From contig CAZLVL010000001.1 of the NCBI GenBank assembly GCA_964563155.1, forward strand, positions 88,008-120,007: a DNA stretch of 32,000 nucleotides, read 5' to 3'. This stretch comes from an uncultured Clostridiaceae bacterium (GTDB taxonomy: Bacteria; Bacillota; Clostridia; DUPQ01). Of the stretch, positions 11,974-20,919 are shown one piece after another (position 1 is the first letter of the stretch; each line of letters begins with the position of its first letter). The position numbers and the translations under genes were made by a program. The notes under the pieces are model-generated. The model was not told where the DNA came from. It worked only from the letters and a program-made list of their open reading frames with translations, and made no database searches.

Positions 11974-12002
11974 TTGACTATTTTGCTAATTTATGTTAAC
12001 CT
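11974..12002 (+). promoter_or_regulatory. Candidate sigma-A promoter for the riboswitch operon
   Basis: TTGACT (11974-11979), a 17 nt spacer ending in TGT, then the weak -10 TAACCT (11997-12002). Confidence 0.3.
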
Positions 12003-12004
12003 AT

Positions 12005-12130
12005 CTTGGACATATCCGAATATTTACATAGTGGGGGACCCGAGTTTTTTAGGGGTGAATCTTACAAAAAAAAAGAGGCGAAGCTTGGTATCGCTAACCC
12101 GTCAGCTAATCCCATAGGAGTACACCAAGG
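12005..12130 (+). promoter_or_regulatory. c-di-AMP riboswitch (ydaO/yuaA class)
   Basis: Conserved blocks are readable: GUGGGGGACCC, GGGGUGAAUC, AACCCGUCAGCUAAUCC. The closing helix is CUUGG (12005-12009) with CCAAG (12125-12129). This matches the B. subtilis ydaO leader as I recall it (GCGGGGGACCCA...GGGGUGAAUCC...AACCCGUCAGCUAACC). Confidence 0.85.
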
Positions 12131-12219
12131 CAAAATATGATATTTTTATTATATTTTTTTTGCTGTTGTGTATTTTATTTATATTCAGCAGTTAAATTAC
12201 AATTGGCGGGAGGCTATAA

Positions 12220-13467
12220 ATGAATGTCTTGTTAAAAATTGCAATTGTCATGGTGGTAGGCATTATAGGGGGCAAACTGGCAAAAATGCTTAAACTACCC
12301 AATGTATCCGGTTATTTAGTAGCCGGGCTATTTTTGGGTCCTTCTTTCTTTAACTTTGTCAGTAGTCAGGATTTAAATTCTTTTTCAATAATTAATGAAA
12401 TGGCTTTAGCAGCCATTGCCTTTAGTATAGGTAATGAATTCATTTGGAAAGAGATTAAAAAGATTGGAAAGTCCATATTTGTAATAACCCTTATGGAGGT
12501 TATTGGGGCAGTGCTAGTGGTCTTTTCTATTATGTTCTTTCTTTTTAAGCAACCCTTTTCCTTTTCAATTATCATAGCTTCCATGTCAGCAGCTACAGCA
12601 CCTGCTGCCACTTTATTAGTTATGAGACAATATAATGCAAAAGGCCCCTTGACCAGTGCCATACTTCCAGTAGTAGCTCTAGATGATGTTTTTGGCATAG
12701 CAATTTTTGGAATTGCCCTTTCTTTAGCTAGAATGACTGATAGTACGGAATCTTTTTCTATTCCTGCTATGATTTTTCAACCTCTGTTAGAAATTGGTGG
12801 ATCTGTTTTATTAGGTTTTGTTTTAGGAATAATATTAGTCTTTGTTACCGGAAAGATATTAAAAAGCAAGGACGAGATACAAGCAGTATCTTTAGCAGCT
12901 GTAGGCTTAAGCGCCGGCTTGTCCATTTTGCTCCACATCTCTCCTCTTCTTACTAGTATTGTTATGGGAACAGTATTAGTAAACTTTAAGCAAAAACCTG
13001 GCAAGATTTTCGAGTCTGTAAACACCTTTGCCACACCCTTGTACTTACTCTTTTTTACCCTAGCGGGAGCAAGTTTAGACCTTTCTATACTAAAGACTGT
13101 TGGTCTTATGGGTATAGCCTATGTCATAGCTAGAGGTGGTGGAAAGATGCTTGGTGCTTGGGCTGGAGCTGAAATGGTTAATGAAGTTCCAGTTATTAAG
13201 AAATATTTAGGCTTAGCCCTTTTACCCCAAGGAGGAATATCCATTGGTTTATTGGTATTGGTAAGACAATACTTGCCTGCCCACAGCGCTGCCATAAATG
13301 CCATTATTATGTTCAGCGTACTGATATATGAAGTGAGTGGACCTATTTTTGCAAAAATTGCTATAAGCAAAGCTGGAGAAATAAATATACCAGAAAAGCA
13401 AAAAAAAGATTTTCCATTTTTTAAAAGCAAAAAGGAAAAAACTATTTCACAATCAGTGAAAAAATAA
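12220..13467 (+). CDS. Cation:proton antiporter (CPA2/Na_H_Exchanger family), membrane domain only
   Basis: 415 aa with about 12 hydrophobic helices and a typical N-terminus (IAIVMVVGIIGGKLAKMLKLPNVSGYLVAGLFLGPS). No soluble RCK/KTN domain is attached. Confidence 0.85.
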   Translation: MNVLLKIAIVMVVGIIGGKLAKMLKLPNVSGYLVAGLFLGPSFFNFVSSQDLNSFSIINEMALAAIAFSIGNEFIWKEIKKIGKSIFVITLMEVIGAVLVVFSIMFFLFKQPFSFSIIIASMSAATAPAATLLVMRQYNAKGPLTSAILPVVALDDVFGIAIFGIALSLARMTDSTESFSIPAMIFQPLLEIGGSVLLGFVLGIILVFVTGKILKSKDEIQAVSLAAVGLSAGLSILLHISPLLTSIVMGTVLVNFKQKPGKIFESVNTFATPLYLLFFTLAGASLDLSILKTVGLMGIAYVIARGGGKMLGAWAGAEMVNEVPVIKKYLGLALLPQGGISIGLLVLVRQYLPAHSAAINAIIMFSVLIYEVSGPIFAKIAISKAGEINIPEKQKKDFPFFKSKKEKTISQSVKK

Positions 13468-13493
13468 TAACATATTAAAGAGAGGTATTTATT

Positions 13494-13841
13494 ATGTATG
13501 CTTTATTTGTAGTTTTAAATGCAGTAGACTATCTAGAAGATATTTTAACAGGATTTTTAGACAAGGGAATAAAAGGAGCTACCATTGTAGAAAGTCAAGG
13601 AATGGGGAAGGTTATTGCCAATAGCAATAATGATGATATCCCAATGTTTGGAGCTTTGAGAATGCTTTTACAAGACTCTCACCCCTATAGCAAAACAATT
13701 TTTACAGTGCTTGAAAATGAAGAAATGGTAGACACTGCTGTAGGAGTAGTTCAAGATGCCATGGAATATTGCTCAACTGGAAACTATGGTTTCATGTTTA
13801 CAGTTCCCATTGGTAAAGTCTACAAAATGTGCAGAGACTAG
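13494..13841 (+). CDS. PII-like signal-transduction protein
   Basis: 115 aa, and the GlnB fold pattern is alignable by eye. Beta1 is LFVVL, alpha1 is LEDILTGFLDKGI, beta2 is GATIVESQGMG, followed by a long loop. Then come KTIFTVLENEEMVDTAVGVV and the B-loop-like STGNYGFMFTVPI. It lies 26 nt after the antiporter gene and has a GAGAGG SD. Confidence 0.7.
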   Translation: MYALFVVLNAVDYLEDILTGFLDKGIKGATIVESQGMGKVIANSNNDDIPMFGALRMLLQDSHPYSKTIFTVLENEEMVDTAVGVVQDAMEYCSTGNYGFMFTVPIGKVYKMCRD

Positions 13842-13877: not shown

Positions 13878-13980
13878 ACGAAATTAGTTAGCTTTAGTCT
13901 TTATGGAGATTAAAAGATTGTATGAAGTATGAAAAAAGGTATGTAAAAATAGATATTAACAAATAAAGATATATTTATAC

Positions 13981-14009
13981 AAACGGCAAAGATAGCTTTT
14001 TGCCGTTTG
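13981..14009 (+). terminator. Stem-loop in the ABC-exporter leader (attenuator, or terminator of the antiporter operon)
   Basis: AAACGGCAAA-gatagcttt-TTGCCGTTT, a perfect ~10 bp stem followed by the T-rich GTCTTGTCT. It lies 30 nt before the exporter start codon. Confidence 0.5.
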
Positions 14010-14038
14010 TCTTGTCTATTAACATATGGTGATAATTT

Positions 14039-17902: not shown

Positions 17903-18175
17903 ACCAAAGAAAAACCGCTGATTAAGAAGAGTAGGCGAAGAGATTTATTGTACAGGGAGTTGCAGATACTGAGATTGCAGCAAAGAAGGCTTCACTGAAT
18001 GGACTTATGAGGGCAGGACGAAAGGAAACGAGTAGCGCCTGACGGGATCTCCACCCGTTATAAAGGGAGCATATATGAGTGTATATGGAATGAGTGGGCA
18101 TTTTTGCCAATCAGGGTGGTACCGCAGGAGTATAATCTCTTGTCCCTAGTTTTAGGGATGAGGGATTTTTTTTAT
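17903..18175 (+). promoter_or_regulatory. T-box leader, tryptophan specifier (UGG)
   Basis: Stem I has AGUA, an AG bulge (AGGGAG), a distal UGAGA, and the specifier loop GAA-UGG-A (UGG at 18000-18002). The T-box sequence AAUCAGGGUGGUACCGCAGG is at 18109-18128. The terminator CTCTTGTCCCTA-gttt-TAGGGATGAGGG plus a T run is at 18137-18174. Confidence 0.85.
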
Positions 18176-18213: not shown

Positions 18214-19197
18214 ATGAAAAAAACAAAGAAAATTTTGGTGCTCACCTTGGCAATTTTATTAATTATTAGCCTTGCATCTTGCACCACAAAAGAAAAGGTA
18301 ATAACAATAGGTGTTATTCAGTATGCTCCCCATGGGTCTTTAGACAACTGTTATGATGGTTTTATATTAGGCTTAGAAGAAGCTGGCTTTGTTGACAAGG
18401 ACAATATCAAGATTGACTTTCAAAATGCCATGGGAGAAATGGATAATAGTGATTTATTGGCCTCTACTATGGTAGCCTCCAACTATGACATGCTGGTGGG
18501 TATTGCAACACCTGCAGCCATGAGTGCTTATGCAGCCAGTAAAAACACCTCTATTCCTGTAGTCTTTTCTGCAGTATCAGATGCTGTAGCAGCAGGAATA
18601 GTAAAATCTAACGAAATACCTGGATACAATGTAACCGGGACATCGGATGTATTACCTCTAGAAGAGCAAATGCAAATGATAAGAGATTTTTTACCAAAGG
18701 CTGAAAAGATAGGAATTATTTACACCACCAGTGAGCCAAACTCTGTTACTCATCTTAATATTTTTAAAGAGCTAGCTAAGGTGTATGGTTTTACTATTGT
18801 AGAAGCAGGTGTTACCAACGCATCAGAGGTATCTATTACTGCAGCTTCCTTGGTTGCAAAAGGAGTGGATTGCATTAATAACTTTACAGATAACAATGTG
18901 GTCAATAACTTATCTTCAGTAATTCATGAAGCAAACAAGGCCAATATACCGGTCTTTGGCTCTGAAATTGAGCAGGTGAAAATAGGGTGTCTTGCATCTA
19001 TGAGCATTGATTATGTAGCCTTGGGAGTGGAAACTGGTAAGATTGCAGCTCGGATTTTAAATGGAGAAGCAGCCTCTGAGATTCCTGTTTCTCTCATTTC
19101 CACCAGTGAACCTGTATACAACTCAGAGGTTGCCAACAGATTAGGTATAGCCATTCCTGACCAATATGTGACTGGTGATAATGATATGGCTAATTAG
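18214..19197 (+). CDS. ABC importer substrate-binding lipoprotein (COG2984 / ABC_sub_bind family; TrpX-like)
   Basis: 327 aa with signal peptide and lipobox LASC. It has the family-typical ITIGVIQYAPHGSLD start. First gene after the Trp T-box. Confidence 0.8.
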   Translation: MKKTKKILVLTLAILLIISLASCTTKEKVITIGVIQYAPHGSLDNCYDGFILGLEEAGFVDKDNIKIDFQNAMGEMDNSDLLASTMVASNYDMLVGIATPAAMSAYAASKNTSIPVVFSAVSDAVAAGIVKSNEIPGYNVTGTSDVLPLEEQMQMIRDFLPKAEKIGIIYTTSEPNSVTHLNIFKELAKVYGFTIVEAGVTNASEVSITAASLVAKGVDCINNFTDNNVVNNLSSVIHEANKANIPVFGSEIEQVKIGCLASMSIDYVALGVETGKIAARILNGEAASEIPVSLISTSEPVYNSEVANRLGIAIPDQYVTGDNDMAN

Positions 19198-19214: not shown

Positions 19215-20126
19215 ATGATTATTATCAACCTTTTACAAAACATCCTACAAGAGGGCTTTATCTATGGGATTATGGCTATGGGAGTTTACATTAGCTACAA
19301 GGTTATGGACTTTCCCGATTTGTCGGTTGATGGAACCTTTCCTCTTGGAATGTGCTTAACAGCAGCCCTCATAAATGCAGGGGTTAATCCCCTGCTAGCT
19401 TCCTTTCTAGCATTTTTAGCTGGCCTTATAGCTGGGTCTGTTACAGGTCTTATTCATGTAAAGCTAAAAATTACAGATCTACTTTCTGGTATCTTAGTTA
19501 TGACAGCTATGTGGTCTGTAAATTTAGTTATTACAAGAGGGTCTGCTGTTTTACCTTTTTACAACAAACCTACTTTTTTTAAAGGAAAATTCATAGACCT
19601 ACTACCTAGCTTTCTGAATAATTACTCCTCTTTAGTGATAACTTTTCTTTTTATGATGCTAGTAAAAATACTAATTGATTTGTATCTAAAAACAAAATCT
19701 GGTCTTTTGCTAAGGGCAGCTGGAGACAACTCTCAATTTGTAACCTCTTTATCAAAAGACCCTGGTCTAGCTAAGATAAGGGGTCTTGCCATAGGAAATG
19801 GCTGTACTGCCCTGGCTGGCTCTATTTTGGCTCAATACAATGAGTCAGCTAATGTTTCAGCAGGAACTGGAATGGTAGTTATGGCTTTAGCTAGTGTAAT
19901 CATTGGAGAGAGCATCTTTAGAAAAGTTACTTTTCTAAAAGGAACTACAACAGCTCTTTTTGGAGCAATTATATATAGGTTGTGTCTCTTACTTGCTATG
20001 CAATTAGGCTTACCTACCAACTATTTGAAGCTCTTAATGGCATTAATATTTGTAATTGCCTTAGTGTCTAACAACTATTTTTCAAGAGGGAGGAAAAAAC
20101 AATATGTCCAACCAGAAAGACTTTAA
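19215..20126 (+). CDS. ABC importer permease (COG4120; TrpY-like)
   Basis: 303 aa polytopic membrane protein, placed between the binding protein and the ATPase. Confidence 0.8.
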   Translation: MIIINLLQNILQEGFIYGIMAMGVYISYKVMDFPDLSVDGTFPLGMCLTAALINAGVNPLLASFLAFLAGLIAGSVTGLIHVKLKITDLLSGILVMTAMWSVNLVITRGSAVLPFYNKPTFFKGKFIDLLPSFLNNYSSLVITFLFMMLVKILIDLYLKTKSGLLLRAAGDNSQFVTSLSKDPGLAKIRGLAIGNGCTALAGSILAQYNESANVSAGTGMVVMALASVIIGESIFRKVTFLKGTTTALFGAIIYRLCLLLAMQLGLPTNYLKLLMALIFVIALVSNNYFSRGRKKQYVQPERL

Positions 20127-20919
20127 AGAGAAAAATCCTGTAAATATAGTTGAGTTGAAGGATATTAAAAAGACCTTTAACAAGGGCTATGTTAATCAAG
20201 TAGAGCTATTTAATAATTTTAACTTAACAATACAAAAAGGCTCCTTTACAACAGTTGTGGGAAGCAATGGCTCAGGTAAAACCAGTCTATTGAACATAAT
20301 CTGTGGAAATATATCTATTGACCAGGGATACATTTTTTTAAACGGTGAAGATATTAACCACTACAAGGAGTATCAAAGAGCTAAAAAGATTGGTAGGGTT
20401 TTTCAAGATCCCTCTCTAGGAACTTGTCCCCAATTGACTATTTTAGAAAATCTATCCCTTGCCTATAACAAGAACAAAGCTTTTTCATTGAGTCCAGCTA
20501 TTAGTAAAAGAAATATTGAATTTTTTGGCTCTCAATTAAAACTATTAGAAATGGGTCTAGAAAACAAGATGACCCAAAAGGTAGCTACCTTGTCTGGAGG
20601 CCAAAGGCAAGCCCTTGCCCTTTTAATTTCCACCTTAACTCCCATTGACCTTTTAATCTTAGATGAACATACAGCAGCCCTTGACCCTAAATCTTCTGAA
20701 ACAATAATGGCCTTAACAGATTCTTTTATTAAAAGCAAAAAGATAACCACCTTAATGGTTACTCATAACCTTAGGTATGCTGTAGATTACGGAGATAGAA
20801 TTATAATGATGCACCAAGGAGATATGGTGGTAGATGCAAAAGAAAGAGAAAAAGAAAACTACCAGATAGAAGACCTTTTAAAGATTTTCAATTCCATATC
20901 CATAGAATGTGGTAATTAA
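20104..20919 (+). CDS. ABC importer ATP-binding protein (COG1101; TrpZ-like)
   Basis: 271 aa with Walker A GSNGSGKT, signature LSGGQRQ, Walker B LLILDEHT and H-loop VTHN. GGGAGG SD. It overlaps the permease gene by 23 nt. Confidence 0.85.
   Translation: MSNQKDFKEKNPVNIVELKDIKKTFNKGYVNQVELFNNFNLTIQKGSFTTVVGSNGSGKTSLLNIICGNISIDQGYIFLNGEDINHYKEYQRAKKIGRVFQDPSLGTCPQLTILENLSLAYNKNKAFSLSPAISKRNIEFFGSQLKLLEMGLENKMTQKVATLSGGQRQALALLISTLTPIDLLILDEHTAALDPKSSETIMALTDSFIKSKKITTLMVTHNLRYAVDYGDRIIMMHQGDMVVDAKEREKENYQIEDLLKIFNSISIECGN

Follow-up and report, generated by a model that had tools for sequence, protein, structure and literature searches.

A predicted c-di-AMP riboswitch, a NapA-like antiporter and a PII-like protein form a conserved module in Bacillota

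Introduction

Why should a riboswitch for cyclic di-AMP (c-di-AMP) stand ahead of the genes for a cation/proton antiporter and a small PII-like protein? The question is raised by a 32,000-nucleotide (nt) stretch of DNA from an uncultured Clostridiaceae bacterium (GenBank assembly GCA_964563155.1, contig CAZLVL010000001.1, positions 88,008 to 120,007 of the forward strand), which is called the window here. It encodes, behind a structured leader, an antiporter of 415 residues and a protein of 115 residues. The initial annotation, made from the letters of the sequence, saw in this arrangement a K+ exporter in which a PII-like subunit replaces the usual RCK-type regulator. We find that the riboswitch, the antiporter and the PII-like protein together are a real, conserved module, one seen across hundreds of anaerobic Firmicutes. 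On balance, we favor a two-gene operon that is switched off at high c-di-AMP and that encodes a Na+-extruding antiporter with a PII-like gating subunit.

Results

The aptamer

The Rfam model RF00379 matched positions 12004–12135 (plus strand) at 66.1 bits (gathering score 38, E = 2e-13), over model positions 1–134, which is its full length. A core of the ydaO class had been noticed at 12005–12130, and the Rfam search confirmed, at the level of sequence, a predicted c-di-AMP riboswitch of this known class. A family-specific covariance model (R1), built from 13 homologous leaders, scored the window aptamer at 115 bits, and all 58 columns that are invariant among these leaders are kept. The pseudoknot is formed by the hairpin loop CUUGG and the 3′ tail CCAAG (12125–12129); both strands (C81–G85 and C122–G126 of the window aptamer) are invariant in the 13 leaders. 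For 54 aptamers from the same gene context, 98.6% of the cells were paired, compared with 44–58% when the partners were slid. Changes on both sides were seen in 9 of 23 pairs, and 0 of 500 shuffles equaled the observed values, although the alignment behind these figures had been fitted to the model. The RF00379 score of the window aptamer is among the lowest of the family (66 bits, against 67–90 bits in twelve relatives).

Conservation of the gene order

One genome per species was scanned, which yielded 530 relatives of the PII-like protein, and the best 80 loci were taken. Of these, 79 have enough upstream DNA to be assessed, and in 75 of them the gene directly upstream, on the same strand, is that of the antiporter, at a distance of 3–100 nt (26 nt in the window). 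The exceptions are two Acetivibrio loci with the PII-like gene alone, one antiporter remnant, and one truncated copy. The adjacency spans antiporters of 390–499 residues and several classes of Bacillota. Four PII-like homologues of 28–47% identity directly follow a Na_H_Exchanger gene of 409–499 residues; because stop and start share a coordinate in two of these four distant pairs, translational coupling is suggested. In a metagenome set anchored on the antiporter, 75 loci could be assessed. Of these, 62 have the PII-like gene directly downstream; when the downstream open reading frames (ORFs) of the other 13 were searched with a profile, no divergent PII-like copy was found. The two-gene unit behind a riboswitch that the initial annotation described is conserved in both sets.

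The riboswitch was traced in the same way. With the R1 model, an aptamer was detected upstream of 53 of the 69 complete antiporters of the genome set and of 71 of the 74 assessable antiporters of the metagenome set, including 12 of the 12 without a PII-like partner. Rfam finds a c-di-AMP riboswitch in the distant pairs L085 and L090 as well. Sixteen antiporter/PII-like pairs have no riboswitch, and no Rfam family reaches threshold upstream of the antiporter in the riboswitch-less loci. Two links, that of the riboswitch with the antiporter and that of the antiporter with the PII-like gene, are thus strong yet incomplete, and neither depends on the other. The named source records of the PII-like loci are mostly from Bacillota, chiefly Clostridia, with some Tissierellia, Erysipelothrix, Acholeplasmatales, and Halanaerobiales.

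Two Clostridium loci without the c-di-AMP riboswitch carry a fluoride riboswitch (RF01734; L053:1976-2035 and L056:2117-2176, both minus strand), which precedes a second, distantly related CPA-type gene divergent from the antiporter/PII-like pair.

The antiporter

The antiporter (12220–13467, plus strand) has a single Pfam domain, PF00999 (Na_H_Exchanger, residues 10–374, 94.1 bits against a cut-off of 26.2, E = 1e-26), and no TrkA/RCK Pfam match was found in its 415 residues. Its earlier description as a membrane-only protein lacking an RCK/KTN domain therefore stands. The top NCBIfam match is the CPA2 model TIGR00932, at 53.6 bits far under the cut-off of 238.3; the KefB/KefC models score 16–19 bits against cut-offs above 750. 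A search of the PDB with the single sequence gives only PaNhaP. When a profile of 25 homologues was used, the best PDB match was Thermus thermophilus NapA (5bz2/4bwz, E = 7e-13), with an alignment running almost end to end. In the profile alignment to 5bz2, 'alddvlG' is matched with 'VIDDVLG' and 'aaGkilG' with 'ILGKVLG', which places D154–D155 on the DD of NapA and K309 on the lysine of its GKVLG sequence. We take these NapA residues to be D156/D157 and K305. Of the 25 homologues, 19 have the DD motif, and R305 and K309 are invariant in 25 of 25. In the TAP motif (residues 126–128), P128 is invariant, and T126 and A127 are at least 90% conserved. The C-terminal tail is rich in lysine.

D157 belongs to the ion site of NapA, and ND or DD at this site marks Na+/H+ exchangers, whereas a strictly conserved QD marks KefC-type K+/H+ exchangers (PMC11150392). 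The window antiporter has DD in place of QD and lacks the C-terminal RCK domain of the KefC/KefB type. Genes called 'kefB' that stand under Na+ riboswitches are really napA-like (PMC9337991). Judged by the profile alignment and these motifs, the protein is closest to NapA, an RCK-less CPA2 cation/proton antiporter, and its substrate is most likely Na+ (or Li+), exchanged for H+ in an electrogenic manner. The K+ exporter role implied by the initial annotation fits poorly with an ion site of DD plus lysine. Nor does a PII-like subunit replace an RCK regulator: NapA, the closest solved relative, never had one, and RCK-less CPA2 proteins are ordinary, so nothing was there to be replaced. Because 13 of 75 antiporters lack the partner yet keep the riboswitch, the PII-like protein is better described as a frequent accessory than as an obligatory replacement.

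A riboswitch-less subgroup (L063, L064, L065, L067, L070, and L074) has NG or DG instead of DD and retains the PII-like partner. The essential second aspartate is lost in them, and these antiporters may transport something other than Na+ or K+. The apparent start codons of the 69 complete antiporter homologues, as extrapolated from tblastn alignments, are TTG in 44, ATG in 15, and GTG in 10 cases (for example, L001:2733 and L010:2728); the window antiporter starts with ATG. A weak start codon that is conserved might provide an element of translational control.

The PII-like protein

The 115-residue protein (13494–13841, plus strand) belongs to a family at the edge of the Pfam P-II family (PF00543). 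It scores 23.2 bits, just below the cut-off of 25; of 29 family members, 27 give a PF00543 match with E ≤ 0.1 (best 3.7e-9). A search of the PDB with the single sequence gave nothing useful, and profiles were needed. The AlphaFold (AF2) model, with a predicted local distance difference test (pLDDT) score of 78.8, has a ferredoxin-like β-α-β/β-α-β topology with a T-loop between β2 and β3. When this model was compared with the PDB by Foldseek, the top 48 matches were PII signaling proteins of the GlnB/GlnK type (E from 8e-5 to approximately 1e-3); the best of these had a probability of 1.00 and template-modeling (TM) scores of about 0.57–0.60. The model thus supports the PII fold that had been assigned to the second gene, 26 nt after the first, and points to a member of a divergent PII subfamily with a predicted canonical PII fold.

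The divergence is most evident in the loops. We take the PROSITE-type patterns of PII proteins to be Y-[KR]-G-[AS]-[AE]-Y for the T-loop and [ST]-x3-G-[DY]-G-[KR]-[IV]-[FW]-[LIVM] for the B-loop; E. coli GlnB, run as a control, matches both, and 0 of the 29 family members matches either. On the adenosine side the PII motifs are kept (G-x-T in β2, G-x-G at the base of the T-loop, and K67, the equivalent of K58), whereas those on the phosphate side are lost. The conserved positions are G28-A-T30, S34-x-G-M37, K67-T-I-F70, and G99-x-M-F102-x-x-P105. At 30 residues, the T-loop segment exceeds that of GlnB (about 22), and part of it is predicted to be helical; the B-loop is short. The Pfam family of DarA/PstA gave no match at E ≤ 1 with the window protein or at E ≤ 0.1 with the 29 relatives. 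The C-terminus reads ...GKVYKMCRD and lacks a CGPxGC motif.

No NCBIfam model exists for this protein, and the source annotations of family members read 'hypothetical' or 'nitrogen regulatory protein P-II'. At 90% identity, the family falls into 108 clusters; at 50% identity, it falls into 985 clusters (E ≤ 1e-3) or 418 clusters (E ≤ 1e-10). Family member P0238 (289 residues) has a phosphotransferase-system (PTS) EIIA_2 domain of the PtsN-like kind fused N-terminally to the PII-like domain, and this fusion looks genuine. It is of interest because K+ transporters of proteobacteria are under the control of EIIA-Ntr. No full-length antiporter–PII fusion occurs in the best 150 representatives of the family. 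Three apparent fusions were rejected, P0130 and P0189 as deletion chimeras and P0148 as a probable read-through with PrmC. The 'GlnB-like' Borrelia BB0017 was also set aside, as it is an unrelated YitT/DUF2179 protein.

The expression platform

The only hairpin before the U run in the window is an all-A/U stem of 11 base pairs at 12132–12157, with a free energy of −6.0 to −6.6 kcal mol−1, which runs into the T8 tract at 12154–12161 (plus strand, element 12132–12161). The initial annotation had likewise seen nothing but weak A/T-rich hairpins before this tract. In an alternative fold, the stem is prolonged into the U run. Compared with shuffled sequence, this region forms more stable folds (z = −2.9). 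Among 53 relatives, 48 have a hairpin of −8 kcal mol−1 or lower with a U tract (AAGCG...CGCUUUUUU) that directly follows the pseudoknot strand. The leader terminators of the relatives have a median free energy of −15.1 kcal mol−1, with values of −10 to −22; the sequences of their stems differ widely between loci, and the stem itself is maintained. The A/U element of the window occupies the same position as these strong terminators. In its closest relatives (L007, L021, L023, and L025), the terminators are likewise weak or atypical. Because the window terminator is unusually weak, control in this genome may be leaky.

In the literature searched, two c-di-AMP riboswitches in which the aptamer is followed by a terminator are described from experiment, that of the Bacillus thuringiensis kdp operon (PMC6488665) and that of Dehalobacter (PMC9337991), and both are OFF switches. 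As both promote termination on ligand binding, we take OFF at high c-di-AMP as the likelier polarity here, by analogy. No report of an ON-type c-di-AMP riboswitch was found in the literature searched. Antiterminator complementarities that were searched for by hand (CAUA/UAUG, and an extended pseudoknot with a bulge) were dropped, as they are not conserved.

Between the terminator and the start codon, most leaders of relatives (for example, L024:1757-1903 and L010:2582-2727) contain an AAAGCG box and a hairpin (G)UCAUAA...UUAUGA, which lies directly 5′ of the Shine–Dalgarno sequence GGAGG. The AAAGCG box is complementary to the 3′ arm of the terminator and its U tract, and GUCAUA is complementary to the 5′ arm; the box and the hairpin could be a second structure that forms after read-through. 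The shorter leader of the window has neither. In L007, L021, L023, and L025, as well as in L092–L098, the Shine–Dalgarno region CU(A/G)UGGGAGG is complementary over 8 nt to the aptamer core UCCCAUAG, which hints at translational control in a sub-lineage with weak terminators. The window does not share this complementarity of its closest relatives. In the leader of L014 (L014:2250-2698), the riboswitch terminator is separated from the start of the antiporter by an insertion of approximately 300 nt, made up of tandem repeats with a unit of about 40 nt.

The operon and its surroundings

A candidate σ70-type promoter was read from the sequence at 11975–12003 (plus strand; TTGACT, 17 nt, TGt-TAACCT). 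Its −35 element is good, its extended −10 element is poor (3 of 6 positions), and a consensus scan did not list it. The position is compatible with a start site just 5′ of helix P1, which we regard as weak evidence. Shine–Dalgarno sequences were also read on this strand, GGGAGG at 12208–12213, 6 nt 5′ of the ATG of the antiporter, and GAGAGG at 13480–13485, 8 nt 5′ of the ATG of the PII-like gene. A terminator scan placed an intrinsic terminator at 13979–14010 (plus strand), with a 14-base-pair stem containing five G-C pairs and a T-rich tail. The genes upstream of the leader (NUDIX, metallo-β-lactamase fold, and RlmH-like) are on the opposite strand, and a separate pair of ABC exporter genes lies downstream. 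Given this terminator and these neighbors, the operon consists of the leader, the antiporter gene, and the PII-like gene.

Elsewhere in the window, a T-box leader (RF00230, 99.5 bits) at 17909–18150 (plus strand) lies 5′ of ABC importer genes, which encode a substrate-binding protein of the PF04392 type (18214–19197), a BPD_transp_2 permease (19215–20126), and an ABC ATPase (20104–20919).

Discussion

High c-di-AMP is a signal that there is no osmotic distress (PMC9337991), and K+ limitation is accompanied by low c-di-AMP (PMC6488665). In the model that we consider probable, a K+-replete cell would hold c-di-AMP high, and the ligand-bound aptamer would favor termination in the leader, so that the operon is off. 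When c-di-AMP falls under osmotic or salt stress or K+ limitation, transcription would read through and yield an electrogenic antiporter, most likely one that moves Na+ (or Li+) out for H+. With an OFF switch, the operon would be expressed under salt or osmotic stress, when Na+ extrusion is useful, and Na+ extrusion under stress is coherent with the DD motif. The PII-like subunit would dock on the cytoplasmic face of the antiporter through its long T-loop and, on sensing a small-molecule ligand, would gate transport, in the manner of GlnK on AmtB and of SbtB on SbtA (bioRxiv 2023.08.10.552651). Gating is the most plausible role for the protein on the strength of synteny and of this analogy. 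In this model we infer the OFF polarity, the Na+ substrate, the physical interaction between the two proteins, and any ligand.

Several observations weigh against it. The window terminator is free of G-C pairs and has a free energy of about −6 kcal mol−1. In the relatives, the base of the terminator overlaps the pseudoknot strand CCAAG by AAG, a layout that could also give an ON switch. Minimum free energy folding of full and half-transcribed leaders from 10 loci revealed no antiterminator, and the aptamer and terminator coexist in the predictions. The Dehalobacter switch is laid out differently: as we read the sequence given in the supplementary material of PMC9337991, the pseudoknot strand of that switch complements the 3′ half of the terminator. 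The T-A-P of the unwound helix in the antiporter differs from the T-S-V of NapA and also from KefC. As this motif fits neither, the substrate is something that we infer, and ion selectivity cannot be read from sequence. In the PII-like protein, the basic residues that contact the ATP phosphates in PII proteins (K90, R101, R103, and R38) are not conserved, K90 being replaced by Phe. The PII-like gene is solitary in two Acetivibrio loci (L030:542-853 and L034:4040-4351). No antiporter was found within 4 kb upstream of it in L034, and L030 has only approximately 500 nt of upstream sequence. With 13 of the 75 metagenome antiporters lacking the partner in turn, neither protein strictly needs the other. 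There is also a question of symmetry. PII proteins are trimers. CPA antiporters are dimers (PMC11150392), and a symmetric plug in the style of GlnK/AmtB is therefore not directly transferable; the geometry would be new.

The symmetry mismatch, the partner-less antiporters, and the solitary PII-like genes speak for an alternative in which the PII-like protein is a soluble signaling or ligand-buffering protein of the same stress regulon, co-transcribed for convenience and acting on targets elsewhere. In Acetivibrio, the solitary gene is convergent with the gene of a DtxR-family metal repressor that adjoins feoB. The one genuine fusion joins the family to a PtsN-like EIIA domain and not to a transporter, and no full-length fusion to the antiporter occurs among the best 150 representatives. 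All of this would suit a protein that works away from the antiporter. However, the adjacency persists to about 30% identity and across several classes of Bacillota, with stop and start overlapping in two of four distant pairs, and a pattern of this kind, which resembles those of GlnK–AmtB and SbtB–SbtA, is hard to explain by co-regulation alone. We therefore regard co-transcription without contact as rather unlikely, and gating of the antiporter remains our preferred reading.

The layout of the leader bears on a second alternative, in which the antiporter exports K+ in exchange for H+, high c-di-AMP turns the riboswitch ON, and export is activated by a second receptor of c-di-AMP, the PII-like protein. 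In this reading the messenger would act at two levels, RNA and protein, as the initial annotation had considered possible. Formation of the pseudoknot on ligand binding could weaken the terminator through the AAG overlap, giving an ON-type layout, and the antiterminator that an OFF switch would employ was not found. At the protein level, c-di-AMP stimulates the K+ exporter CpaA (PMC6488665), and the PII-like protein SbtB can bind c-di-AMP (PMC8654305; bioRxiv 2023.08.10.552651). Against this, the literature searched holds no ON-type c-di-AMP riboswitch, and the kdp and Dehalobacter switches are OFF, the opposite of what a K+ exporter would need, since c-di-AMP, acting on the proteins, activates K+ exporters. 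Both the DD motif and the similarity to NapA argue against a KefC-type selectivity for K+. The PII-like protein has no DarA/PstA match, and its loops are canonical rather than reversed. Finally, the riboswitch and the PII-like gene vary independently, as the riboswitch is present at all 12 assessable antiporters without a partner and missing from 16 pairs. An ON-switched K+ exporter thus appears improbable.

It is similarly improbable that the riboswitch is decaying in this genome, with an intact aptamer, a lost G-C terminator stem, and a more or less constitutive operon: the low aptamer score (66 bits, against 67–90), the all-A/U hairpin of about −6 kcal mol−1 (against −10 to −22), and the weak or atypical terminators of L007, L021, L023, and L025 would fit such a decay, but every invariant aptamer position and the pseudoknot are retained, an 11-base-pair hairpin followed by a perfect U8 tract occupies the homologous site, folding is more stable than in shuffled sequence (z = −2.9), and a ligand-assisted switch needs a weak terminator.

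In a bolder extension of the gating model, which we consider doubtful, the 115-residue protein would be the founding member of a PII subfamily specialized for CPA2 antiporters and would also serve as a receptor, either for c-di-AMP or for a related adenine nucleotide. If this were true, one messenger would set both the amount of a Na+/H+ antiporter, through the RNA, and its activity, through the protein. The protein would also provide the first case of a dimeric secondary antiporter regulated by the PII family, and c-di-AMP would be directly tied to Na+ homeostasis.

Comparison with Known Systems

Three elements are already known: the class of riboswitch, antiporters of the NapA type, and, as a principle, the pairing of a PII protein with a transporter. 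In the literature searched, we came across neither a PII subfamily linked to CPA2 antiporters nor this antiporter family as the cargo of a c-di-AMP riboswitch, although prior lists of ydaO-controlled genes might name such antiporters.

The known ydaO riboswitches (B. subtilis kimA/ktrAB, B. thuringiensis kdpFABC, and Dehalobacter ablA) share the RF00379 aptamer and, with the relatives studied here, a terminator placed after it; their cargo is likewise an ion transporter relevant to osmotic stress. The cargo here differs, being a CPA2 antiporter with a PII-like protein and not a K+ importer. Other differences are that the terminator begins inside the 3′ strand of the pseudoknot, that the window terminator is all A/U, and that folding revealed no antiterminator. 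The biology of c-di-AMP has so far centered on the transport of K+ and compatible solutes. With a NapA-like antiporter encoded in a widely conserved operon under a c-di-AMP riboswitch, Na+/H+ exchange would join that regulon in many anaerobic Bacillota.

The DD motif and the lysine of NapA from T. thermophilus are in register with those of the window antiporter, and neither protein has an RCK domain. The similarity is low (found by profile only, E = 7e-13), and T-S-V in NapA is T-A-P here. We know of no PII-like partner of NapA. KhtT–KhtU and CpaA resemble the present system in that a CPA2 antiporter is tied to c-di-AMP signaling, and KhtT is a separate small soluble partner. In contrast, the fold of the partner here is that of PII instead of RCK, an RNA leader provides the link to c-di-AMP, and the motif suggests Na+ rather than K+.

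DarA/PstA are also small PII-superfamily proteins of Firmicutes. They have a short T-loop and a long B-loop (PMC6516651), whereas the 115-residue protein has a canonical long T-loop and a short B-loop. The likeness to GlnK–AmtB and SbtB–SbtA is closer: a small PII-fold protein is encoded beside a transporter, the pair is conserved, and a long T-loop could reach the transporter. SbtB is encoded with SbtA, whereas the partner of the 115-residue protein is a Na_H_Exchanger protein, and SbtB has a C-terminal CGPxGC redox loop (bioRxiv 2023.08.10.552651). This motif is absent here, as are the PII signatures and the phosphate-binding residues, and the T-loop is approximately eight residues longer. 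The transporter also differs, being a trimeric channel or symporter in the known pairs and a cation/proton antiporter of a dimer family here. The 115-residue protein is a small, tractable, and unannotated target, with no NCBIfam model and a score below the Pfam threshold, and the prediction can be tested directly with two purified proteins and one RNA. To our knowledge, the transporters that PII-family proteins gate have so far been trimeric (AmtB, SbtA). The present subfamily (985 clusters, with nearly all sampled members beside an antiporter) would extend PII gating to a different transporter architecture.

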